A DNA stretch of 64,000 nucleotides from Sedimenticola hydrogenitrophicus (GCF_025175675.1 NZ_JANIOA010000011.1:51864-115863), one strand, 5' to 3'. Shown: positions 50,986 through 62,187, counted from the stretch's first letter. Notes: generated by a model from the letters alone, not told the origin. Made by a program: numbers and translations.

Positions 50986-51837
50986 CTACAGGCTCTGGAC
51001 GAAAACCCTGATCCCGTTCAACAGCATCTGGGTGGCCAGTATCACCAGGATCATCCCCATCAGCCGTTCCAAAGCGCGCGCCCCCCGGTTACCGATCACC
51101 GACAGCAGGTAGGGCGAGATCAGCAAAAGGAGTGTGGTTGCAAACCAGGCGATCAGCAGCGCCAGGCTCCACTCCAGCATCCGCCCCGGCTGGTTGGAAC
51201 TGAGCAGCAGCAACACCGCGATGGTGGAGGGCCCGGCGATCATCGGCACCGCCAGGGGGACGATGAAGGGATCGTCGTCCTCCTCACCCTGCTCGACGGC
51301 GCGGCCGGGAAAGATCATGCGTAGCGAGATAAGGAACAACAGCACACCGCCGGCGATACTCAGCGACGGCTGGCTGAGCCCGAGAAAACCGAGTATGAAG
51401 TTACCGGCAAACAGAAAGCCCAGCAGGATGATCAGCGCAATTACCAGCTCCCGCGCCACCACCCGCACCCGGCGCCCTCGATCCAGCTTTGCCAGGACCG
51501 CATTGAACACCGGCCCATTGCCCAGCGGGTCCATAATCAGAAACAGGGTCACAGCGGCGGAAGCGATATCGGTCCAGTTCAAGTTTTTCCCCAATCGTAA
51601 AGCCAGGATTGTCCATGGCTGACAGACGCCGGTCCATGCGTCGATCGGCATTCCGGGCCCATTGAAGTCGTTGCCTTTATACCGCAGGCGCAGGGATTTC
51701 ACCAACCACCGGAAAATGCCCCTCTTGATAGCGCCTGGCCGTGCCCGATGGCCCAACTTATTCGCAGGCCGGCAAAACCGCTCCCGCACATCCCTGTGCT
51801 TCGTGGCATAAGTCCTTCCTTGGACGTAACTACTCAC
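50986..51837 (-). CDS. MarC-family (UPF0056) integral membrane protein; the true start is probably internal (near LFLIMDPLGN)
   Basis: LIMDPxGNxPxF signature and a 6-TM pattern. Confidence 0.65.
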   Translation of the reverse strand: MSSYVQGRTYATKHRDVRERFCRPANKLGHRARPGAIKRGIFRWLVKSLRLRYKGNDFNGPGMPIDAWTGVCQPWTILALRLGKNLNWTDIASAAVTLFLIMDPLGNGPVFNAVLAKLDRGRRVRVVARELVIALIILLGFLFAGNFILGFLGLSQPSLSIAGGVLLFLISLRMIFPGRAVEQGEEDDDPFIVPLAVPMIAGPSTIAVLLLLSSNQPGRMLEWSLALLIAWFATTLLLLISPYLLSVIGNRGARALERLMGMILVILATQMLLNGIRVFVQSL

Positions 51838-51857
51838 GGGGTGATTGTCCTGCCTTG
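51822..51857. repeat. solo copy of the family E MITE terminal repeat
   Basis: ggacgtaactactcacggggtgattgtcctgccttg. Confidence 0.6.
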
Positions 51858-51892
51858 CCGGGATAAAAAAAGCCCGTCGGGATGACGGGCAA
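51858..51892 (-). terminator. minus-strand rho-independent terminator downstream of nhaC
   Basis: The minus strand reads gcccgtcatcccgacgggcttttttt. Confidence 0.5.
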
Positions 51893-52018
51893 TGGGAGGT
51901 TTGCTATACAGGTCGGCCGGATTGGCCGGCATTTATGGCCTCACGGCTTTTCTTTGTACCGAGGTGAAACAAAACATTGGGTCATGATTAATGCAACTAT
52001 TGGGTAAACCTATCAGCC

Positions 52019-53539
52019 TTAGCCCGGGTTAGGGGCCAGCTTACCGGGAACCGGCTCGTCCACATCCAGATTGGTTGCTACGGCCTCGCCCTGTTCCTTC
52101 CAGGTACGCTGCTCTTCCTCACTGGCACGTGGCGAAAACAATCCCGTCTGGGCGTAGATCAGGCCAATGACCGGGGATACCCAACAGGCAAATGCCAGTG
52201 GGATATACAACAGGTTTTCGATATTTCCCTCCGCCACTCCCAGTCCCAATGCACTAATCACGAATGCACCACCCGCGTTCCACGGAATCAGCGGGGAAAT
52301 CAGCGTACCGCCCTCCTCAATGGCACGTGACAGGTTCAGGGTCGAGTACTTCATTCCACGATAGATGGGGGCATACATGCGACCGGGCAGGGCAATCGAC
52401 AGGTAGGGATCACCGGCGACCAGGTTGGTGGATATGGATGTACATACGGCGGCTGTCTGCACCCCTTTGAAGGTGCGAATTTTCGTCATGATGGCGCGAA
52501 TAATCGCTTCCAGGCAGCCCGTCCTTTCCAGCGCACCACCGAAACCCAGCGCGATAAGCACCAGGGAGATGGTCCACATCATCGATTGAATACCGCCGCG
52601 GTTGAGCAGGCTGTCGATGGTGGCGATCCCGGTCTCAATGGAATAACCGCTGTTGGCGAAAGTGAGCAGCTCATGCAGACCGCTGCCCTGTGCCAGCATG
52701 GCGGCAACCGCGCCTGCCAATACGCCGGCGAACAACGACGGAATGGGGGGCATGCGTTTCACCGCCAGCACAATCACCAGGGCAGCCGGCAGCAGCAGCC
52801 AGGCGGAGATGGTGAAGTTCGCTTGCAATGATGCCGTAATGGCATTGATTTTTTCGAACGAAGCGTTTCCGCCATCAATCAGGGTGAAGCCGGCGATAAG
52901 ATAAATGGTGAACGCAATCAGCATGGCCGGTATGGTGGTCGGCATCATGTTCTTGATGTGTGAAAACACATCCGTCCCGGTGACCGCCGGGGCCAGGTTG
53001 GTGGTGTCCGACAGGGGGGAAACCTTGTCACCAAAGAAGGCGCCCGAGACCACGGCTCCGGCTGTCCAGTAAACCGGAATGTCAAAGCCTGCCCCGATAC
53101 CCATCAGCGCCAGCCCCACGGTTCCCACGGTCCCCCAGGAAGTACCCAGCGACACCGAGACCACCGAGCAGAGTATCATGGCGGCTGCCAGGAATATCTG
53201 TGGCGACAAAAGTATCAACCCGTAGTAGATCAAAGTGGGCACGGTGCCGCTGGCAATCCAGACACCAATGATCATACCAACGCAAATCAATACGGACACC
53301 GAGGGGAGCGATACGTGAATCACGTGAAACACACCCTCTTCAATGTGTTTCCACTTAAACCCCAACCTGATGCCGACCAGTCCGGTAATGGCCAGGCCGA
53401 TGGCCAGGGGAATGTGGGGAGTGAAATCCCCGAAATAGAACAGCTGCACTCCCAAAACGATCAGGGTTAAAACGACGGGAGTGAGTGCCAGGAGCAGGCT
53501 GGGTTGCCTGGGGTCTCTCATCTGGGTTGGTTCTGCCAT
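52019..53539 (-). CDS. nhaC: Na+/H+ antiporter NhaC family
   Basis: Polytopic membrane protein with NhaC-family sequence. The start was chosen at MAEPTQMRD. It has a C-terminal hydrophilic tail. Confidence 0.85.
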   Translation of the reverse strand: MAEPTQMRDPRQPSLLLALTPVVLTLIVLGVQLFYFGDFTPHIPLAIGLAITGLVGIRLGFKWKHIEEGVFHVIHVSLPSVSVLICVGMIIGVWIASGTVPTLIYYGLILLSPQIFLAAAMILCSVVSVSLGTSWGTVGTVGLALMGIGAGFDIPVYWTAGAVVSGAFFGDKVSPLSDTTNLAPAVTGTDVFSHIKNMMPTTIPAMLIAFTIYLIAGFTLIDGGNASFEKINAITASLQANFTISAWLLLPAALVIVLAVKRMPPIPSLFAGVLAGAVAAMLAQGSGLHELLTFANSGYSIETGIATIDSLLNRGGIQSMMWTISLVLIALGFGGALERTGCLEAIIRAIMTKIRTFKGVQTAAVCTSISTNLVAGDPYLSIALPGRMYAPIYRGMKYSTLNLSRAIEEGGTLISPLIPWNAGGAFVISALGLGVAEGNIENLLYIPLAFACWVSPVIGLIYAQTGLFSPRASEEEQRTWKEQGEAVATNLDVDEPVPGKLAPNPG

Positions 53540-53895
53540 AGTGATCTCCTTTGATGGATGTTCGTGCAGGGCCGACCCCTCGGTATATCGAGAGGCCTGT
53601 CGCGAAAAAGTGCCCTGGTTCAGTCCGAACTCCGCTGCGTCGGTGAAAACCGGTTTCAACCTTTTACGCGTACTGCCTACGCCCACGTCTGTTGCCAGAT
53701 ATCGCAAAACCGCAAAGAAGGCCGGGAGTCGTTCTGACTGCGAATCGAGATCCTGTTGCGCTATCTGATCGGTTCTTATTCGTCAGGCCTTCTTGTCTAC
53801 ATTATTAGACTTTTTACCTAGGAATAGGCTCTAAATAATGATTATTTGCCTACCTTATGGCCTATTTATTCCAATTAAATAGGCAATAAGCCTAA

Positions 53896-54669
53896 ATGAT
53901 TGATCGCATCGACAAACTGATTCCGCATCAGCTTCAGGAACATGGACATATGTCCATAGTTGAATTGGCGAACAGAGTGAACCCGACCAAAACGCCTTGT
54001 GCCCAGCGTGTATGCCGGCTTGAGAAGGCCGGCATTATTCGCGGCTACCGCGCCGACCTCGACTCGCAACAGCTGGGGGCGGGGCATGTGCTGGTGGTGC
54101 AGGTGACGCTGGACAAGACCAGCGAGGACGCGCTGGAACGCTTTAACGAGGCGATACGGCGCATTCCGGAAGTGCAGAGCGGCTACATGGTGGCGGGGAA
54201 TTTTGACTATTTACTAAAGGTCAGGACCCGCGATATCGCCCACTATCGCAGCGTACTGGGTCATGAAATCGGTCAGCTGCCCCATGTCCACCAGACCCAC
54301 TCCTACGTGGCGATGGTGGTGGTGAAGGACGAAGTGACCGTGCCCATAGAGGTGAAGGGGATTACCTGGCGCGGAACAAGGATTTACCGAGCATTTGGTA
54401 ATGTTCCTCAAAACAGCCGGCAAGGCCCAACGCTCCCGCTGATTGATTATGCAAAACCGATAGTGAACTGTTTTTTGAACTCTTCGATCTCATGCAGGAA
54501 ATCGTGGCCGGGATGTTGCGGCAGTGTATCCAGACGCTCATCCACGTCCACCTGTAGTTCCCACGGTTCGACATGCTGGTTGATAAACAGTAGTTCGGTA
54601 TCGGGGAATACCTGCGTTACACCCTCGGTGATGTCATGGATCGTGAGGTTGCGGGCCACCAGGTCATAG
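53896..54669 (+). CDS. lrp: Lrp/AsnC-family transcriptional regulator. The Lrp fold ends near 54366. The ORF then reads on about 100 codons because the expected TGA is TGG here, and it overlaps the convergent epimerase gene.
   Basis: An HTH_AsnC N-terminus (IDRIDKLIPHQLQEHGHMSIVELANRV) and a RAM domain. The degraded duplicate fragment at 57791-57920 carries TGA at the homologous position. Confidence 0.8.
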   Translation: MIDRIDKLIPHQLQEHGHMSIVELANRVNPTKTPCAQRVCRLEKAGIIRGYRADLDSQQLGAGHVLVVQVTLDKTSEDALERFNEAIRRIPEVQSGYMVAGNFDYLLKVRTRDIAHYRSVLGHEIGQLPHVHQTHSYVAMVVVKDEVTVPIEVKGITWRGTRIYRAFGNVPQNSRQGPTLPLIDYAKPIVNCFLNSSISCRKSWPGCCGSVSRRSSTSTCSSHGSTCWLINSSSVSGNTCVTPSVMSWIVRLRATRS

Positions 54670-55373
54670 ATATCCGGTTGCAGGTCGGCATCCAGCAACC
54701 CGTCCAGTACCCTTGTCGCATCTTCCACATGGATATAGGCCCGTGCCTGGTTACCCGACCCGTTCACCGTAATCCGTTGTCCGGACGCCGCTTCCATCAT
54801 GTAGCGGTTAATACGCGCATCAAAGCGCATGCTCTTGCTGTAGCCGTAGACATTGGCGATGCGTACCGTGTAGGCAGCCATTTTCTCCCGTAAACGGTCA
54901 ACATGCTCTTCACCGCGCAGTTTGGAGATGCCGTAATAGGTCGTCGGGTGCGGTGGGGTTTGATGATTCACCATAGCGCTTGAGGTACCGTACACCGCCG
55001 AACTGCTGGTGTAGATCAAGCGCGACACGCTACTCTCTTCTACCGCGTACACCAACTCCGAGGTGCCCCAGTGATTGACCTGCTCCAACAAGTGGGGGTT
55101 GTGGTCTGAAAACGGCTTGGTCACGCTGGCCGCGAGGTGGTAGACGACGTCGATCCCTTCGAGGGATTGTCGCAGCTTGCGGGTATCGAGCAGATCGCCG
55201 TGGATGAAACGGACCTTGCCCAGCGGAAACTTCCTTACCCCGATAAACAGGTTGTAGTTGCTGCGACTGAGGTTGTCGTAAATCACCACCTCGGCGATAT
55301 CGTCGCGACTGGCCAACTGATAAGCGAGTTCGGTCCCCAGGTAACCTGCACCGCCGGTTAATAGTACTTTCAT
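54447..55373 (-). CDS. NAD-dependent epimerase/dehydratase family protein
   Basis: MKVLLTGGAGYLG Rossmann motif plus the SDR YxxxK region. Confidence 0.8.
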   Translation of the reverse strand: MKVLLTGGAGYLGTELAYQLASRDDIAEVVIYDNLSRSNYNLFIGVRKFPLGKVRFIHGDLLDTRKLRQSLEGIDVVYHLAASVTKPFSDHNPHLLEQVNHWGTSELVYAVEESSVSRLIYTSSSAVYGTSSAMVNHQTPPHPTTYYGISKLRGEEHVDRLREKMAAYTVRIANVYGYSKSMRFDARINRYMMEAASGQRITVNGSGNQARAYIHVEDATRVLDGLLDADLQPDIYDLVARNLTIHDITEGVTQVFPDTELLFINQHVEPWELQVDVDERLDTLPQHPGHDFLHEIEEFKKQFTIGFA

Positions 55374-55376
55374 CGG

Positions 55377-56054
55377 TTACTTCTCTATCAGTTGGGTGTG
55401 TAATCCACACTCGGTTTTTTTCATGCCAAACCAGCGTCCCTGGCGCTCATCCCCGTCCGGGTCCACTTTACGGGTACAGGGCTCGCAACCAATGCTCAGA
55501 TAGCCCTGCGCTTCCAGGGGATGAGCCGGCAGATCGTGCAGTTTCCGGTAGTAGAAGATATCCTTGTTGTTCCACTCCAGCATCGGGTGGTAACGCAAGG
55601 TGCCAAACGGCCCCTTCGCGGTCTCTCCCATCTGTCGTCGCGTTTCACTCTGGTCGGCGCGAACGCCGTTGATCCAGATATCGCGCTCGATCAAAACGGG
55701 CTCCAGCGGTTGAATCTTGTTCAGGTAGCAGCAGTGGTCCGGATCGGAGGCAAAATAGAACGAGCCATTGGCATCGCATTGCAAACGCTTGCTCACCAGC
55801 GAGCGGGTGCTGATGACATTCAGGTCCAGTTGTTGGGCAATCTGATCTTTAAATCGGATGGTGTCGGGAAAATGAAACCCGGTATCGATGAAGTAAACCG
55901 GAATTTCCCGGGAGATGGAACGGACGATATGCAATAACGGAATACTGTGGCTTTGGAAGGAGGAGCCGACAAACAGCTTTTTTCCTTCGCCAAGAAAGTC
56001 GCCAATCCGTTGCCGGATCGGCGCCGTCTTTTGCTCAAAATACGTCGCGTCCAC
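55377..56054 (-). CDS. cysH: phosphoadenosine phosphosulfate (PAPS) reductase, thioredoxin-dependent type
   Basis: PAPS_reduct fold. C-terminal ECGLH catalytic motif. The Fe-S CC..CxxC cluster of the APS-reductase type is absent. Confidence 0.8.
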   Translation of the reverse strand: MDATYFEQKTAPIRQRIGDFLGEGKKLFVGSSFQSHSIPLLHIVRSISREIPVYFIDTGFHFPDTIRFKDQIAQQLDLNVISTRSLVSKRLQCDANGSFYFASDPDHCCYLNKIQPLEPVLIERDIWINGVRADQSETRRQMGETAKGPFGTLRYHPMLEWNNKDIFYYRKLHDLPAHPLEAQGYLSIGCEPCTRKVDPDGDERQGRWFGMKKTECGLHTQLIEK

Positions 56055-56062
56055 GGGGCATC

Positions 56063-56707
56063 CTAGGCGACCGCAGCCGGTCCCTTGTAGGTTTCAACTA
56101 CGCCACGCTGGGCCAGCAGTTCGATCACCTGGTCGACACACTTTTCCAGACTCTGCTCACCGGTATCGACTACCAGTTCAGGAGACTGCGGCGCTTCGTA
56201 GGGAGAAGAGATTCCGGTGAAGTGAGGAATCTCGCCGGCACGCGCCTTGGCATACAGCCCTTTCACATCGCGCTTTTCGCAAACATCCAATGAGGCGTCG
56301 CAGAATATTTCATAGAAATCACCATGCGGGGTGACGTTTCTGGCGATTTCCCGGTCGGCCTGGAACGGTGAGATGAATGCGGTCAATACCACGCTGCCGC
56401 TCTCCAGAAACAACTTCGCCAGTTCGCCGATACGCCGGATATTCTCGGTACGATCTGCATCGGAGAAACCGAGATCGGAGCAGAGGCCGTGGCGAACGTT
56501 GTCACCGTCCAGCACGAAGGTACGGCTGCCCATATGGTAGAGTCGATCTTCAACCGCATGGGCCAGTGTCGATTTACCGGAACCGGACAGGCCGGTGAAC
56601 CAGAGCACGGCCCCTTTGTGCCCATTCTGCTTTTCCCGCAGTTCCCGGGTGATGGTCGCATTGTGCCAAACGATATTGGTGCTCTTGCCCGCTTTTTTGT
56701 CGCTCAT
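56063..56707 (-). CDS. cysC: adenylyl-sulfate kinase
   Basis: [10 protein letters not shown]-loop, [11 protein letters not shown] and an APS kinase-type C-terminus. Confidence 0.9.
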
Positions 56708-56997
56708 GTCATTAACTCAGCTAATCTATGCATATGGAATAATTATGTTTGGCATGATGCCAGCGACAGGGCCCGTTGAAAAAGTATTTCTGGTTATCAG
56801 CTCATACCGATACTGAATAAGCCTAAAAAGAGAGGGGTGTCGGCAGGCAGGGCCGCCGCCAGCCACCCGATAGAAAGGGTTAAGATGGATTAATATCGCA
56901 TTTAGACAAGGCAGTTCGGATTAAAATTCGGCTCTGGGTTCGGGTTTCTTCCAGCTGAGAATGCATCATCAAGGCGTTATTTGAGTAATATTACTTA

Positions 56998-57573
56998 ATG
57001 AAGCCGGGGCCGGACTTCTTCCTGATCACCGGCCATGCGATCCGGCACAAGCTGTCCGGCACTGTCTATATTTGCATAGGGATCGCGGCAGGCAATGCCG
57101 TCTATATCGGTATTGCCATTCTGGGCTGGACCGGGATTCGGGACAATCCACGGCTTTTCTCCCTCATCGAGGTCGTTGGCGCCTGTTATCTGTTATGGGT
57201 AGGCTGGCAACTGATCAGAAGCAAACAGGCACCGACTATGCCCGCGACAACAGTGCTTCACTCCCCTTCGGCGTTCAAACAGTTGCTACTCGGAGTTAAC
57301 TCGGCGCTGCTGAACCCCAAAAATGCCCTGTTCTATATGAGTCTGATGACCGTTATTTTGGGAAGCGAGGTGACCGTTTCTCAGCAACTTGTATGTGGCC
57401 TCTGGATGTTCATGGCTGTGTTGGTCTGGGATCTATCGCTGGCTGCCCTGGTAGGGCAACCCGGAATTCAGCGCTGGCTGAACCGTAGGATTCATCTCGT
57501 CGAGCGCGGTGCCGGAGCGGTATTGATGAGCTTTGGCCTCGGCCTGTTTATTGGAAGCAGTGGCAAGTCTTAG
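56998..57573 (+). CDS. LysE/RhtB-family amino-acid exporter
   Basis: 191 aa, 6 TM, LysE-family pattern. Confidence 0.75.
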   Translation: MKPGPDFFLITGHAIRHKLSGTVYICIGIAAGNAVYIGIAILGWTGIRDNPRLFSLIEVVGACYLLWVGWQLIRSKQAPTMPATTVLHSPSAFKQLLLGVNSALLNPKNALFYMSLMTVILGSEVTVSQQLVCGLWMFMAVLVWDLSLAALVGQPGIQRWLNRRIHLVERGAGAVLMSFGLGLFIGSSGKS

Positions 57574-57606
57574 TAATCATGTGGTCAGAGTCATTGATTT
57601 TGCAAT

Positions 57607-57769
57607 GTACCACTGCCCGCCCCGAGTGCCCGCTGCATCAGCACCGTGTCGACCCACCGGCCAAGCTTGAAGCCAACGGCCTCGAGCGTGCCCACGCTAC
57701 GGAAACCGAGCCGCGCGTGCAGGGCGATGGAACCGGCATTGCCGCTGTCCCCGATCACCGCCACCATCT
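57607..57769 (-). pseudogene. duplicated 3'-terminal fragment (about 163 bp, about 95% identical) of the GNAT acetyltransferase gene at 60816-61400
   Basis: Direct alignment of 57607-57769 with 60856-61018 shows about 8 mismatches. Confidence 0.85.
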
Positions 57770-57790
57770 AAGGTCAGACTCCATGAGTTT

Positions 57791-57920
57791 GCCCACTATC
57801 GTAGTGTGCAGGGTCATGAAATCAGTCAGTTGCCCCATGTTCACCAGACACACACCTATATGGCAAGGGAGGTGGTGAGACGAAGTGACCGTGCCCATTG
57901 AGGTGCCGGGAATTACCTGA
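57791..57920 (+). pseudogene. degraded duplicate of the lrp 3' end (about 80% identical to 54238-54368, with a 2-nt deletion and TGA stop)
   Basis: Alignment gcccactatcg..gtcatgaaatc..ccccatgt..gaagtgaccgtgccca..attacctg. Confidence 0.8.
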
Positions 57921-58067
57921 CGAGACGGCCATCCTCGCCAGCTGGCGTTATCAATAATGACGAGGAACTTGTAGCTAAACAAAAAATAATGGGAGGGGAG
58001 TGTTCGTGCTATTCAATGGGATAGGCGTATTGTCGCTCAGTGAATGAATCAGGGATGACTTGCCGTT

Positions 58068-59171
58068 TCAATGATGGGATTCGACAGCGACACACGGCTT
58101 CTCGTATGTTGCGGCCAGCATTACCTTGGCCACAAACGGGGAGGTCATTGCACGGACCAGCGCACTGTAGTTCAGTCCGAATCTGATCTCGGCACCTACT
58201 TGGGGATGGTTGCTATCGGACTGGGTGATCAGATGGTCGCCGCTGGCGCCCAGTATCCGGGTGCCGTTTGGCGCCTTGAGACCCGACGGATCGACGTCCT
58301 GGTGGCCGATGGCGAGAATCGCCCGCGAGATGTCCCCTCGACAGGCAACGACGCTTGCCGCTCCGAACGCGGTTTGCGCGATCGTGCCCCATGGGCGCGC
58401 CGGCTTGAGCTTTGCCTCGATCACCTCGCCAACCAGCGTAATCGCATCGAGGTGCAGGCCCTCGATCGGTCGCCGGTGGAGCGGCTCACAACCGAGCAGA
58501 ATGGCCTCACCGAGACGGAGGTTGTTGATTCTCCCGATCTCTACGCCACTCAATGCCCAATCCAGGTTGGCCGAGTTTCCACCCGACACCAGATCAAGAC
58601 TCACACCGAAGGTGGCCTCGACCGAATCCGCCAGCGCGGACAGCGCGGACATGTTGTCCGCATCGGGTGAGATACCGCCATGGCATGCCAGGTTGGCACC
58701 GATACCGCTGAGTACGATGTTCGGCAGTTGCAGCACCGCATGCACTATGTCGTTGAGGTCAGCGGGCATGATACCTTCGCGGAGGTCACCAAGCTCAACC
58801 ATGAGCACGACCTGGTGCGTCCGCTGCGCTGCCCGGGCAGCGCACGAAAGCCTGTTGATCACCGCCAGCTCGGTATTGAAGCTCAGGTCGGCTTGTCGCA
58901 CGACCCGGTCGGCCTGGCTGAGCATCGGAGAGCGGATCAATATCATGGGTGCCGCAACGTGCTCGCCACGCATCGCCTCGATATTCTCGATACGCGAATC
59001 GCCAAGCGCGCTCACGCCGGCGCGCAGCAACACCTTGGCGATATCGGCTGACCCGAGACTCGCTTTCGTCACGCCCGTGACCGAGATGCCACGCTCGACC
59101 AGTCTCTCAACCAGGGTACGGGCGTTGTGATGAATCTTATCGAGATCTATTTCCAGTCGCGGTGCCGTCAC
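58068..59171 (-). CDS. alanine-racemase-fold (PLP, TIM-barrel) putative amino-acid racemase (YhfX/ornithine-racemase-like)
   Basis: A vague family resemblance to the alanine-racemase N-terminal fold, recalled from the general character of the sequence; no motif could be pointed to, and it is not a classical Alr. Confidence 0.6.
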   Translation of the reverse strand: MTAPRLEIDLDKIHHNARTLVERLVERGISVTGVTKASLGSADIAKVLLRAGVSALGDSRIENIEAMRGEHVAAPMILIRSPMLSQADRVVRQADLSFNTELAVINRLSCAARAAQRTHQVVLMVELGDLREGIMPADLNDIVHAVLQLPNIVLSGIGANLACHGGISPDADNMSALSALADSVEATFGVSLDLVSGGNSANLDWALSGVEIGRINNLRLGEAILLGCEPLHRRPIEGLHLDAITLVGEVIEAKLKPARPWGTIAQTAFGAASVVACRGDISRAILAIGHQDVDPSGLKAPNGTRILGASGDHLITQSDSNHPQVGAEIRFGLNYSALVRAMTSPFVAKVMLAATYEKPCVAVESHH

Positions 59172-60523
59172 TTGGCGCCAACTGGTAGCTTCTCCTGAAG
59201 ACCGGGGAACGCCGCGAAGACCATCTCCAGCAGACGCTGAGGTGACCGGGCCAACGCATCGGTGGTGGGGATTTCGAGTTCGGTTTCATACTTGTCGATG
59301 GCCGCGCTGATCTCGGCATCGCTCATATACTCATGGTTGATCGTGAGCCCGATGACCCGTGTATCGGCGAAGGTCTGAATCAAGTTGATCTCGCTGGCCG
59401 GCGACGGCATGGCCATCTGGTTGAAGTCACAGCGGGCCACACGTCCCGGTGCATGCTGCAACACCACCGCATCGGGGCAACTGCCGCGCAGAATGAACGA
59501 TGTGGTCGAGAACGCCGGATGACTCAGCGCGCCTTGCCCCTCGATGATAATGACATCGGGCTGCTCTGCCTCGAACGCTTCGACGATGGTGGCTTCCAGT
59601 TCGCCGGCACAGAACTGCGACGGCACTGCATCCATCGCGATGCCGTAACGGGCGCCCTGGATCAGACCGGTTTGCCCCGTGCCGACCAGCACCGCCTTTA
59701 AACCGACATCCTTGAGGGCACGGGCGAGAACGGTGGCCGTAGTGCGCTTGCCAATGGCGCAGTCGGTGCCCAGCACGGCGATACGCGGGCAGGTTACCTC
59801 GTTGATACGGCCGCTGAACATCCGCAGATCCTTCTTCGGGCGAGGCTTGCGAACGTCAAGAATACTGACGTTGTTGGCTATGCGGGCCGCCGTGAACTCC
59901 GGATCATCGTTCAAGAACTCATGCAGACCGTTCACGATATTCATGCCGAGGCCGATGGCACTGAGCACGAGCTCACGCTCGTACACGGATAACATACCAC
60001 TGGCGGGCGCCATACCAAAGATGAAGTAATCCGGCACACAGCCCGCCTGCTTGAGTGAAGCGGTCAGATCGTGACAAATCGGGATGCCGTTTGGCTTATC
60101 GTCGAGCACCGTGCCGGTATCGAACCCCGCCTTCTCGCTGTCGATGACCGAGAGAATCTGATACTTTTCCGAGTGCCGGACCAGCCCGTTCGCGGTCTTT
60201 CCATCAATCTCGCCGAAGTTTGCCTCGCAATAGACAATCGCGGTGGCAGCCGGTTTACGTACAGCACCGTCGCTATCAATGAGGCCAAGCTTTACACGTA
60301 TCGAGGATGGAGATGGGAGAGTTTCGGTATAAGCGGCGAGCGGTGAAGCGGGGATGAGAAGTGGCGCAACGGCAACCGGAGGGCCCTGCGGAGAATACGG
60401 GCGAGCCCGCTGCGGACCGGAATAAACTATGGACATAAGGGTTCCTTGAGCTGGACGGGGCTCAGAGGGCGCAATGTAGTGATTGCCGGACTGATATACC
60501 CGGTTGTCAAGAAGAGTCCCCAC
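59168..60523 (-). CDS. DUF1611-family protein (Rossmann-like N-terminus plus a P-loop-like C-terminal domain) with a Pro-rich N-terminal extension
   Basis: VYCEANFGEIDGKTANGLVR and VLGTDCAIGKRTTA motifs as recalled for DUF1611. Its stop overlaps the racemase-fold gene. Confidence 0.55.
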   Translation of the reverse strand: MGTLLDNRVYQSGNHYIAPSEPRPAQGTLMSIVYSGPQRARPYSPQGPPVAVAPLLIPASPLAAYTETLPSPSSIRVKLGLIDSDGAVRKPAATAIVYCEANFGEIDGKTANGLVRHSEKYQILSVIDSEKAGFDTGTVLDDKPNGIPICHDLTASLKQAGCVPDYFIFGMAPASGMLSVYERELVLSAIGLGMNIVNGLHEFLNDDPEFTAARIANNVSILDVRKPRPKKDLRMFSGRINEVTCPRIAVLGTDCAIGKRTTATVLARALKDVGLKAVLVGTGQTGLIQGARYGIAMDAVPSQFCAGELEATIVEAFEAEQPDVIIIEGQGALSHPAFSTTSFILRGSCPDAVVLQHAPGRVARCDFNQMAMPSPASEINLIQTFADTRVIGLTINHEYMSDAEISAAIDKYETELEIPTTDALARSPQRLLEMVFAAFPGLQEKLPVGAK

Positions 60524-60815
60524 TAAGCGGTGGGGTTAAGCGACCCTCAGGTTAACACGGATCTTCCGAAGAGTTGGGAAATACTTGAGGTTTCCGACCA
60601 AAGGTGGTCACAGTTACTCATCAGCGGTAGCCATGCAGCGTCCAATTGTATTGCTGTACCTCGCCTCCCGGAATGACAAGACCAGCGAACGATGGGGTCA
60701 GACTCGATGAAAGTTAGGTTCTGGTGGTCTTTGCGGGGACAGGCGCTTAGTTGTCCCCGCGCACATCATATTCCTCATTGCCTTCGCTGCACTTACTGTT
60801 CTGCATACAGCACGA

Positions 60816-61400
60816 TCACACCCCGGGAACCGCACCACTCATCCTGTTCTGCAAGGTACCACTGCCCGCCCCCAGTGCCCGCTGCATCATGACGGTGTCG
60901 ACCCACCGGCCAAGCTTGAAGCCAACGGCCTCGAGCGTGCCCACGCTACGGAAACCGAGCCGCGCGTGCAGGGCAATGGAACCGGTATTACCGCTGTCCC
61001 CGATCACCGCCACCATCTGGCGCCAGGGGCCGGTTTCGCAACGGGCGATCAGAGCGGCAAGCAGGGCCATCCCGATACCCCGACCCTGCATCCCGTCCGC
61101 CACGTAGACCGAATCTTCGATTGTATTACGATAGGCGGGACGGGGCCGATAGGTCGTCGCATAGCAGTAGCCGACGACCCCGCCGTCCAGTTCCGCAACC
61201 AGGTAGGGGAGACCGAGGGCAAGTACGTTTTCCCGCCGAAACAGCAACTCGTCCGCCGTGGGGGGAATCTCCTCGAAGGTCGCCAGGCCGTGCAATACCT
61301 CTTGCTTATAGATCTGCTTGATTGCGGGGATGTCCGCGTTCGTTGCATCCCGGACGATGACTCCGGAATTCAGCGTTGAGTTAACCTGCCACATCGGCAC
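60816..61400 (-). CDS. GNAT-family N-acetyltransferase (phosphinothricin/methionine-sulfoximine acetyltransferase-like)
   Basis: Acetyl-CoA binding motif QGRGIGMALL and PAT-like length (194 aa). Confidence 0.8.
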   Translation of the reverse strand: MPMWQVNSTLNSGVIVRDATNADIPAIKQIYKQEVLHGLATFEEIPPTADELLFRRENVLALGLPYLVAELDGGVVGYCYATTYRPRPAYRNTIEDSVYVADGMQGRGIGMALLAALIARCETGPWRQMVAVIGDSGNTGSIALHARLGFRSVGTLEAVGFKLGRWVDTVMMQRALGAGSGTLQNRMSGAVPGV

Positions 61401-61473: not shown

Positions 61474-62187
61474 TTATTCCCGTAGATTAGCGACAAACCG
61501 ATGATCTCCGGAGTGCTTTCGCATTCGGTACAAGGTCGCAGGCCGCCCCCGCTCCGTACGCTGCTGTCCTGTATCGATCAACAAATCTGCTTGCTCTATC
61601 CGGCGCCGGAATGATTTCTTTTGTAGGGGTTTGCCGAGCAATACTTCATGGACATGCTGCAACTCTGGCAAGGTAAATTTGTCCGGAAGCGTATAGGCCG
61701 GGACGATAGAGTAAAGCGCCTTCTGCCGAAGGCGCTCTACCCCAATCCGGATAAGTTCCTGATGATCGAAGGCCAAACTGATTCTATCCAGTCCCGCAAT
61801 ATCAAACCATTGCGCATCCTGGACCGTTGAAATACCCGCTTCGCAGACTTGGTAGCCGATAAGCGCGGTGTAGCAAACCGTGACGGACCAACCCCGTTTA
61901 TCCCGTTTGCTGTTACCCATGGTCGCCAACTGGTCAATATAGGGAGGAGCGACACCGGTTTTTTCTTTCACTTTCCGAATCACAGTTTCTTCCAGATTCT
62001 CGTCGGCCTGCATGTCGACAAAGCCGCCGGGAAGGCACCATTTACCCCGGTCCGGATGATTGGCGCGCTCAACAAGAAGCACTTTCAAGGCGCCTTCATG
62101 GAATGTGAAAAGCACTGCATCCACCGTGACCAGCGGGCTATCGTGGTCTTTTGGATTGTATGCCTCCAAAAAGGCTTTCTCACTCAT
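61474..62187 (-). CDS. Nudix-domain protein with a C-terminal winged-helix; NrtR-like regulator of NAD metabolism
   Basis: Degenerate Nudix box (GGFVDMQADENLEETVIRKVKEKTG) plus a basic C-terminal domain. An NAD-kinase-like gene lies divergently downstream. Confidence 0.6.
   Translation of the reverse strand: MSEKAFLEAYNPKDHDSPLVTVDAVLFTFHEGALKVLLVERANHPDRGKWCLPGGFVDMQADENLEETVIRKVKEKTGVAPPYIDQLATMGNSKRDKRGWSVTVCYTALIGYQVCEAGISTVQDAQWFDIAGLDRISLAFDHQELIRIGVERLRQKALYSIVPAYTLPDKFTLPELQHVHEVLLGKPLQKKSFRRRIEQADLLIDTGQQRTERGRPATLYRMRKHSGDHRFVANLRE

Follow-up and report, generated by a model that had tools for sequence, protein, structure and literature searches.

A 64,000-nucleotide (nt) stretch of Sedimenticola hydrogenitrophicus DNA (NZ_JANIOA010000011.1:51864-115863; called the window below, with positions counted from its first letter) carries on its minus strand a compact cassette made up of a conserved leader RNA, a gene for a DUF1611 protein and a gene for a pyridoxal phosphate (PLP) racemase. 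We propose, with moderate confidence, that this cassette is a self-contained, horizontally mobile, RNA-regulated module that would racemise an amino acid and irreversibly modify one of its two enantiomers. The proposal is drawn from sequence comparisons across genomes and metagenomes, which are laid out here together with the explanations that compete with it.

The DUF1611-racemase gene pair

The racemase is encoded by an open reading frame (ORF) of 367 amino acids (aa) at 58068-59171 on the minus strand, and it matches the Pfam family Ala_racemase_N with 81.3 bits; an exact search for this racemase in public assemblies returned no record. Its GTG start shares bases with the TGA stop of the DUF1611 gene, an overlap (GTGA, 59168-59171, minus strand) that is read directly in the sequence. 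The DUF1611 gene was first called as an ORF of 451 aa (59168-60523, minus strand). Both of its domains score above the Pfam gathering thresholds, DUF1611_N (PF17396) with 83.6 bits against a cut-off of 22.6 and DUF1611 (PF07755) with 235 bits against a cut-off of 25. An earlier note on this DNA had named both protein families and the translational coupling, and these results bear it out. The three ORFs that it listed, the third being an acetyltransferase of the GNAT family discussed below, are present and belong to the families named; the start that it gave for the DUF1611 gene has to be moved.

The conserved start is the ATG at 60436, with the Shine-Dalgarno (SD) sequence AAGGAA in front of it (60442-60447, minus strand), and no ATG, GTG or TTG occurs from there to the beginning of the fold. 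Homology to solved DUF1611 structures begins at residue 90 of the 451-aa ORF. The NCBI-annotated homologue P0001 has 422 aa, equal to the corrected length, and the window protein is 96% identical to a 422-aa protein of S. hydrogenitrophicus. The column after the leader, which corresponds to the last three columns of the alignment, is ATG in 127 of 136 distinct leader sequences. Given the conserved SD and ATG and the 422-aa homologue, the DUF1611 protein is therefore 422 aa long, not 451 (59168-60436, minus strand), with a Rossmann-like and P-loop core in residues 62-422. The present analysis thus corrects the start codon of this gene family. The GTG at 60523, which falls within the conserved leader RNA and would add 29 codons, was rejected as a start, and the 'MGxLxDNR' translations of Desulfuromonadales ORFs were likewise rejected as coding: between lineages, 1-nt indels break the frame, and the nucleotides stay conserved. 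The first ~60 aa (60257-60436, minus strand) form a Pro/Ser/Ala-rich N-terminal extension that is predicted to be disordered, with AlphaFold2 (AF2) predicted local distance difference test (pLDDT) values below 50 at residues 1-11 and 16-60. The body of this extension varies in sequence across homologues and lineages; at the very beginning, other lineages have a motif of the type M-S-x-I-P-P.

The pair was followed in two scans. A genome scan with one genome per species gave at least 598 pattern-matched stretches and at least 529 confirmed relatives, with 80 loci kept; a metagenome scan gave at least 120 loci, of which 80 stored loci were analysed. The kept loci come from Gamma- and Alphaproteobacteria, Desulfuromonadales, Planctomycetota, Acidobacteriota, Gemmatimonadota, Nitrospirota, Nitrospinota, Omnitrophota, Verrucomicrobiota and Actinomycetota, more than 10 phyla in all, and their sources are mostly marine or sediment. 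In 79 of the 80 species-level loci, several of which are cut by contig ends, the DUF1611 gene is followed directly, on its own strand, by a gene for a racemase homologue, 60-96% identical. The exception is L024, where a 364-aa Acetyltransf_9 GNAT follows DUF1611 in place of the racemase. The reverse look-up, starting from three racemase homologues, found DUF1611 directly upstream in all three. Of 69 homologous pairs, 53 join the two genes by the 4-nt overlap read in the window and 7 by an overlap of 1 nt.

The DUF1611 cores share on average 76.5% pairwise identity (range 65.6-97.2%) and the racemases 67.4%. Values of ~76% and ~67% across more than 10 phyla are unusual for an accessory metabolic enzyme pair. 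The identity matrices of the two proteins correlate (r = 0.68), which we take as a sign of co-evolution, and they carry no taxonomic signal: a Thermoanaerobaculia copy is 79% identical to that of the window, as against 74% for the copy of a Sedimenticola metagenome-assembled genome (MAG). Literature searches on DUF1611, COG3367/PF07755 and N-acetyl-D-ornithine returned incidental mentions only. No paper describing the DUF1611-PLP-racemase pairing was found in the searchable literature, which agrees with the earlier view that the combination was undescribed. A divergent second clade of the pair with the same leader was also seen among the metagenome loci (L097, L103, L119, L121, L124, L142 and L152); its DUF1611 proteins are 52-59% and its racemases 49-54% identical to those of the window, and L119, which lies at a contig end, has DUF1611 only. 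This clade would be useful for covariation analysis and for comparing specificity residues.

The leader RNA

When 16 gammaproteobacterial loci are aligned on the start codon, the pattern TGnTAnnnT appears, followed by ~100 conserved nt. In the window this leader RNA spans 60437-60545 (minus strand), 5' of the DUF1611 start, and the pattern is found as the extended -10-like element TGTTAACCT (60549-60557, minus strand), ~13 nt upstream of the leader. We infer that the element acts as a promoter; a generic promoter scan did not call it in the window. The conservation of the leader is not coding, because 1-nt indels occur between lineages. By nhmmer, the leader is present in 68 of 89 sources. A covariance model, R1, built from 55 sequences (alignment A4), gives 64 matches in 1.13 Mb, one per locus, all on the gene strand and ending at the DUF1611 ATG. 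Its sole match in the 64-kb window lies at 60434-60545 on the minus strand (68.2 bits, E 4.7e-13). Such a fixed place and orientation in the 5' untranslated region (UTR) across distant taxa is expected of a riboswitch or another cis-regulatory element. No family among the 4227 of Rfam 15 matched at E <= 1, either in the window region or at the leader of 9 other loci, and no paper linking a riboswitch candidate to DUF1611 was found in the literature.

The metagenome contigs were scanned with a 22-nt leader pattern alone, CTTAGNNGGGACNNCTYGTTGA, and all 80 stored loci are full-length covariance-model matches. DUF1611 follows the leader in 67 of the 80, an upstream ORF (uORF) and the racemase in 6, and other genes in 3; the sequence is too short in the remaining 4. 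In the six racemase-only loci (L092, L096, L100, L122, L129 and L135), the uORF has 17-25 aa and begins MRPF[ST]TP..., or MHPAAIHP... in L135, and its stop codon overlaps with the start of a racemase gene whose product is 47-50% identical. These loci look like deletions in which the regulatory leader and the translational coupling would have been retained. Two loci (L141:185-1197 and L112:8190-11319) carry a fusion of the leader and a DUF1611-like N-terminal extension to an NTP-transferase, and the next genes encode a class I/II aminotransferase-fold protein and a CDP-alcohol phosphatidyltransferase; the start codon of L112 is mutated. At L116 a short ORF and an Ldh_2-family gene come, in this order, after the leader. 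The downstream genes of these three loci could hint at the signal sensed by the leader.

In the window, the elements of the leader, all on the minus strand, are the hairpin P1 (60518-60535), the invariant CUUAG (60523-60527), GGGAC (60516-60520), the hairpin P2 with its arms at 60499-60503 and 60486-60490, CUGAG (60461-60465) and the SD. P2 shows compensatory double changes in six of six pairs in the genome set and in five of six in the metagenome set, with ~96% of cells paired; when the partner strand is slid as a control, pairing falls to 35-62%. The register of P1 varies. Even so, the upstream arm of each sequence forms on average 3.72 base pairs (bp) with its own G-N-N-G-G arm, compared with 2.72±0.10 with arms of other sequences, and 0 of 1000 permutations were as high. 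The spacer and SD region has its complement in the tract that follows GGGAC, which reads CUCGUUGA, or UCUUCUUGA in the window. The duplex averages -7.05 kcal/mol when each sequence is paired with its own partner, as against -6.70±0.10 with permuted partners and -4.33 with shuffled sequence, and by our reading of alignment A3, A:U replaces G:C at two pairs of the helix in Photobacterium profundum. We propose from these comparisons that the SD can be sequestered by the upstream pyrimidine tract.

The helix of CUUAG/GGG with CC(U)CC/CUGAG is 97-99% paired and near-invariant, and hence gives no covariation signal. This helix is mutually exclusive with P1, and together with the SD helix it would form a pseudoknot. 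RNAalifold alone finds only P2 together with one of two further elements, the CUUAG:CUGAG helix or a trivial stem of 3 bp. Two candidate features of the same region were set aside. A 'terminator' called at 60518-60535 by a generic terminator scan is the hairpin P1 of the leader and has a poor T-tract. A hairpin P3 (CGGC...GUCG) overlaps the 3' arm of P2, and its G-to-A variants fit a sixth P2 pair better.

The conservation continues into the first codons. After the leader (60419-60436 in the window, and at other loci) they are kept as M-[SLF]-x-[IV]-P-P, and position 5 is Pro in 74 of 129 DUF1611 sequences, often as Pro-Pro. These codons may be involved in RNA pairing, GUCCC against the invariant GGGAC, or in a nascent-peptide or EF-P-dependent effect.

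Taken together, the leader is a candidate riboswitch or translational regulator, placed to control translation, and it is probably the most novel element of the locus. It is possible, if somewhat doubtful in our view, that it is no metabolite riboswitch and acts instead as a protein-binding operator RNA, an RNA thermometer, an ion sensor or part of a nascent-peptide arrest involving the Pro-rich N-terminus. The conserved codons after the leader would fit such a role, as would the retention of the leader and first codons before other genes (the NTP-transferase fusions of L141 and L112 and the 17-25-aa uORFs); the leader also has long stretches of invariant sequence, as any specific binding surface would. 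However, no regulator gene is conserved beside the cassette, most loci are without a conserved stand-alone leader peptide, and riboswitches typically combine SD sequestration with the kind of conservation seen here, in which sequence and structure are kept over ~100 nt in more than 10 phyla.

Catalytic residues and proposed chemistry

Over its full length, including the PLP lysine at position 36, the racemase is homologous to the Orr/OrnR enzymes (Clostridium sticklandii Orr, Salmonella STM2358 and the S. aureus staphyloferrin A enzyme; PMC13397332). The NCBIfam model for ornithine racemase Orr, NF040742, aligns at model positions 2-351 of 351 with 345.6 bits, which does not reach its cut-off of 480, and the alanine-racemase and VanT models give 19-27 bits only. 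Phillips et al. (PMC13397332) reported that ornithine racemases, unlike alanine racemase, use Lys36 and Cys164 as two catalytic bases, that Asn161 takes the place of the PLP-stacking His, and that the PLP-domain residues of OrnR are Lys36, Arg129 and Arg220. The window protein has the Schiff-base Lys36, the PLP-binding arginines (R131 and R219), the catalytic cysteine (C163) and the asparagine (N160) that replaces the stacking His. Its motif GANLAC(163)HG aligns with ATNFNC(164)YG of Salmonella OrnR, derived from mutagenesis primers in PMC13397332, and the Asn-x-x-Cys at 160-163 is equivalent to Asn161/Cys164, in place of the His/Tyr of alanine racemase. K36, R131, N160, C163, N199, S200, R219, G221 and Y335 are each kept in at least 98% of 72 racemase homologues. 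Judged from these alignments, the 367-aa protein is an OrnR/Orr-type fold-III PLP racemase, in which Lys36 would bind PLP and Cys163 would be the second catalytic base.

Because every characterised member named in PMC13397332 acts on ornithine, the substrate is probably a basic or diamino acid, such as ornithine or lysine, as far as the family alone can indicate. Unlike the Orr/OrnR enzymes, the window clade is nearly always coupled to DUF1611, and it is found without oraSE/ord/ortAB and without the operon context of a D-ornithine/lysine decarboxylase. Genes for ornithine fermentation, or for a D-Orn/Lys decarboxylase with transporters, are absent from the window and from a census of 129 flanking genes.

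In the DUF1611 protein, 137 residues are kept in at least 98% of 79 sequences, and the P-loop GTDCAIGKRTTA is essentially invariant (97-100% per position). The protein also gives a weak match to the BioD model. Its relatives in the Protein Data Bank are TM0796 (2G0T, E 4e-43), Ava_3511 (2OBN) and 7XRJ, the last labelled in Foldseek, after the depositors' name, as 'N-acetyltransferase DgcN-25328'. Outside DUF1611, the folds that come closest are those of cyclic-2,3-diphosphoglycerate synthetase, the D-Glu ligase MurD, succinyl-CoA synthetase alpha, MeaB and BioD, with TM-scores of 0.2-0.3 obtained from a low-confidence AF2 model (pLDDT 64.8, shallow alignment). We used this model only to confirm the fold of the family and the disorder of the N-terminus.

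The library of 50%-identity representatives holds 1961 DUF1611 clusters. The window's clade accounts for ~2 full-length ones, and identity to the next relatives does not exceed 49%. Among these representatives DUF1611 is fused twice to enolase-superfamily (MR_MLE) racemases (P0324 and P0316), in other DUF1611 clades only, once to a GNAT domain (P0263) and twice to PhnB-like (3-dmu-9_3-mt) domains; the fusion proteins are P0324, P0316, P0263, P0317 and P0325. The MR_MLE fusions are, at the level of sequence, independent evidence that DUF1611 enzymes work with racemases.

The reference point for such a partnership is the DgcN-DgcA pair, which passages of PMC12363236 and PMC10845958 describe as a catabolic D-glutamate route, an energetically costly 'irreversible racemisation', citing Yu et al. 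2023, ISME J 17:537. The earlier note had linked DUF1611 proteins to N-acetylation in a D-glutamate route of DgcN with DgcA; that route is described as catabolic, not biosynthetic. Like DgcN-DgcA(-deacetylase) of marine Proteobacteria and Halobacteria, the present cassette encodes a DUF1611 enzyme beside an amino-acid racemase with which it would work together, has a marine distribution and, as we propose, would make racemisation irreversible by covalent modification. The differences are considerable. The partner here is a fold-III PLP racemase (79 of 80 loci), whereas DgcA is an N-acyl-amino-acid racemase of the enolase superfamily. The equivalog model for DgcN, NF041892, gives 164.6 bits against a cut-off of 480 and covers residues 166-433 only; identity to 7XRJ is ~23% in the Foldseek structural alignment, and the window clade has the extra ~60-aa N-terminal extension. 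A conserved RNA leader appears as the regulator here, whereas DgcN-DgcA is reportedly controlled by a protein regulator, DgcR.

We propose the following mechanism. The structured 5' leader, the DUF1611 enzyme with its disordered N-terminus and the translation-coupled OrnR-type racemase would form one transcription unit. The leader would fold with the SD paired to the pyrimidine tract that precedes it; this fold would be shifted by a signal, in the simplest case a small molecule bound as in a riboswitch, and the shift would set the translation of DUF1611, and the GTGA overlap would pass the control on to translation of the racemase. The Lys/Cys two-base racemase would convert an amino acid, probably a basic one, between its L and D forms. 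DUF1611 would then irreversibly modify one enantiomer, by analogy with DgcN through N-acylation of the D form, and this modification would pull the otherwise 1:1 L/D equilibrium one way. In a bolder and distinctly speculative version, which we hold to be quite improbable, the leader would represent a new widespread riboswitch class sensing the pathway amino acid or its N-acyl-D derivative, and the cassette would be a portable device of two enzymes that makes a metabolically inert N-acyl-D-amino acid from a common, ornithine- or lysine-like L-amino acid, used by marine and sediment bacteria of many phyla, for example, as a compatible solute or protective metabolite; in this version the conserved Pro-rich first codons may have a part in the switch.

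Several observations weigh against the proposed module. Clear compensatory changes are seen in P2 only, P1 and the SD helix being backed by permutation tests, and the window's own leader folds no better than shuffled sequence (z = -0.68), so that the case for leader structure rests on comparative data. The racemase stands behind the leader without DUF1611 in 6 of the 80 metagenome loci, and DUF1611 stands without the racemase in L024, L126 and L161; thus, the partnership is not absolute. Both the DgcN and the Orr models remain below their cut-offs, and therefore neither protein is an orthologue of a characterised enzyme. A PLP racemase requires a free alpha-amino group, and the order of steps therefore cannot copy DgcN-DgcA: the modification would have to follow racemisation or target a side-chain amine. 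Finally, the AF2 model of DUF1611 is of low confidence, at the pLDDT of 64.8 given above. Judged by the modelled fold, Rossmann with a DTBS/MurD-like P-loop, ATP-dependent ligation by DUF1611 would be as plausible as acetyl-CoA transfer.

The genes beside the pair bear on the direction of the flux. Only one flanking family is recurrent, the M81 metallopeptidase (MlrC-type; DUF1485 + MlrC_C), which accounts for 16 entries in the Pfam census of the 129 nearest flanking genes and which, by clustering, lies next to the pair in 19 of 80 loci and in addition in L084. It is placed divergently upstream or directly downstream of the pair (L011, L012, L015, L023, L026, L027, L033, L036, L042, L043, L047, L054, L064, L068, L073, L074, L076, L079, L080 and L084), and a search of the 64-kb window did not find it. 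Rare neighbours are ornithine cyclodeaminase (2 loci) and, at single loci, an M19 dipeptidase, an S51 peptidase, an amidohydrolase and, in L086, a PF00144 beta-lactamase-family hydrolase. No transporter or regulator gene is conserved beside the pair in the census.

Peptidases, hydrolases and a cyclodeaminase as neighbours would suit salvage or catabolism, in which the racemase would turn D-amino acids, freed by nearby peptidases from peptides with D residues, into the L form, and DUF1611 would acylate the substrate or product to make the step irreversible, or detoxify surplus D-amino acid; DgcN itself is catabolic. Yet a reversible PLP racemase alone would do for the D-to-L direction, no transporter is conserved beside the pair, and about three quarters of the loci, this window included, are without peptidases. 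We consider salvage an unlikely account of the cassette, and prefer the proposal that one enantiomer is trapped after racemisation.

The chemistry of DUF1611 invites a further alternative, namely that the protein is not an acyl-CoA transferase but an ATP-dependent DTBS/MurD-type amide ligase for a D-amino acid, or an NTPase accessory of the racemase. The near-invariant P-loop, the weak BioD match and the nearest non-DUF1611 folds (cyclic-2,3-diphosphoglycerate synthetase, MurD, MeaB and BioD) all lean this way, and both the GNAT fusion in P0263 and the GNAT of L024 would be odd if DUF1611 always carried acetyltransferase activity. Conversely, DgcN (7XRJ), the sole member to have been characterised, is reported to be an N-acetyltransferase, and the fold matches, at TM-scores of 0.2-0.3, come from the low-confidence model. 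As a whole, we judge this alternative to be improbable, and N-acylation of the D form remains our working assumption for the modification step.

Mobility, neighbouring genes and significance

A Marinobacter MAG (L005:7843-10317) shares 85% nucleotide identity with the window, limited to 58120-60595, that is, the cassette and ~160 nt upstream including the leader, and its flanks are unrelated. This match points to recent horizontal transfer between orders, with contamination of the MAG as the alternative. Compared with S. hydrogenitrophicus (L004), identity is 96% over 58007-60707 only. The segment at 51590-58007, which contains the genes for Lrp, an NAD-epimerase, a PAPS-reductase-like protein, APS kinase and LysE and a GNAT fragment, is an indel relative to S. 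hydrogenitrophicus; there, MarC follows ~250 nt after the racemase, and its equivalent in the window begins at 51590 and runs downward. A 172-bp direct repeat brackets the cassette (57598-57769 and 60847-61018, 95% identical), and in its downstream copy tblastn (57594-57767, minus strand) recognises aa 129-186 of the GNAT, a fragment from the 3' end of the gene, which suggests an insertion or rearrangement at the GNAT gene. The GC content of the cassette is 0.605, against 0.52-0.57 in the flanks, and the flanking genes differ at every locus. The confined identity, the direct repeat, the GC contrast and the indel thus indicate that the cassette of leader, DUF1611 and racemase is horizontally mobile as a unit between phyla, as judged from sequence, and that the adjacency of the GNAT gene is an accident of insertion or rearrangement. 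In S. hydrogenitrophicus, a stretch downstream of the racemase (L004:2741-2816) corresponds to window 60771-60845, the part of the GNAT 3' end that adjoins the repeated one.

The GNAT ORF itself lies at 60816-61400 (minus strand, 194 aa, ArsN1/PAT-like). It had been described as resembling phosphinothricin acetyltransferase. It is indeed a GNAT whose nearest families are ArsN1b (137.4 bits), PAT (100.9) and ArsN1a (99.1), but it stays below their cut-offs of 210, 300 and 170, and it is outside the conserved cassette. Beyond it follows an NrtR-like Nudix regulator (61474-62187). On the other side of the cassette, a LysE exporter gene is convergent (56998-57573), and an Lrp-type regulator is encoded by a 257-aa ORF on the plus strand (53896-54669), towards which the NAD-epimerase gene (54447-55373) is convergent. 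Only residues 2-152 of the Lrp ORF match the Lrp model, and its tail overlaps the NAD-epimerase gene by ~220 nt; its stop codon may have been lost or shifted. The genes for the NAD-epimerase, the PAPS-reductase-like protein, APS kinase and LysE and the GNAT gene fragment separate the racemase from Lrp, over ~3.7 kb.

The comparative data contradict the earlier idea of a three-gene GNAT-DUF1611-racemase module under Lrp for the synthesis or detoxification of D-amino acids. The genes are on the same strand and close together in the window, and the GNAT family acts on amino-acid analogues; this idea is nevertheless almost certainly wrong, as homologues of GNAT, NrtR and Lrp occur in 0 of 83 related loci (LysE has one weak partial match, 36% over 70 aa in L005), the second 172-bp copy of the GNAT 3' end downstream of the racemase makes the adjacency look like a by-product of insertion or rearrangement, and the 96%-identical relative has no Lrp block at the corresponding position. 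Nor is the GNAT immediately upstream, as had been stated: it is 379 nt away from the DUF1611 start, and the gap contains the cassette's own promoter-like element and leader. No acetyltransferase is found among the 25 commonest Pfam families of the 129 flanking genes. Of the co-occurrence looked for in other genomes, the part that joins DUF1611 to the racemase stands, and the parts that add GNAT and place Lrp beside the module fall. From their distribution, the GNAT and Lrp genes are chance neighbours and should not be read as part of the system.

Two further known systems are useful for comparison. The ablAB genes encode lysine-2,3-aminomutase and an acetyltransferase, which give the osmolyte N-epsilon-acetyl-beta-lysine. 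The present cassette is like ablAB in being a compact, transporter-less pair of an amino-acid isomerase and a candidate acyltransferase, and in its wide occurrence among marine and saline organisms; the enzymes are unrelated. The lysine, glycine and glutamine riboswitches, like the leader described here, are conserved structured 5' UTRs before amino-acid-metabolising genes, with the ribosome-binding site involved in pairing. The leader differs from them in its architecture of P1, P2 and the possible pseudoknot of CUUAG/GGG with CC(U)CC/CUGAG, and in having no match in Rfam 15.

The DUF1611 family comprises ~2,000 clusters at 50% identity with one characterised member only. If the proposal that the cassette racemises an amino acid and then traps its D form is true, racemisation would be made irreversible in a second way, by a different mechanism, and the cassette might supply or consume N-acyl-D-amino acids in marine sediments. 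Orphan riboswitch candidates that have hundreds of representatives, are tied very specifically to certain genes and lack an Rfam entry have become rare, and the ligand of the leader would also reveal the substrate of the pathway.

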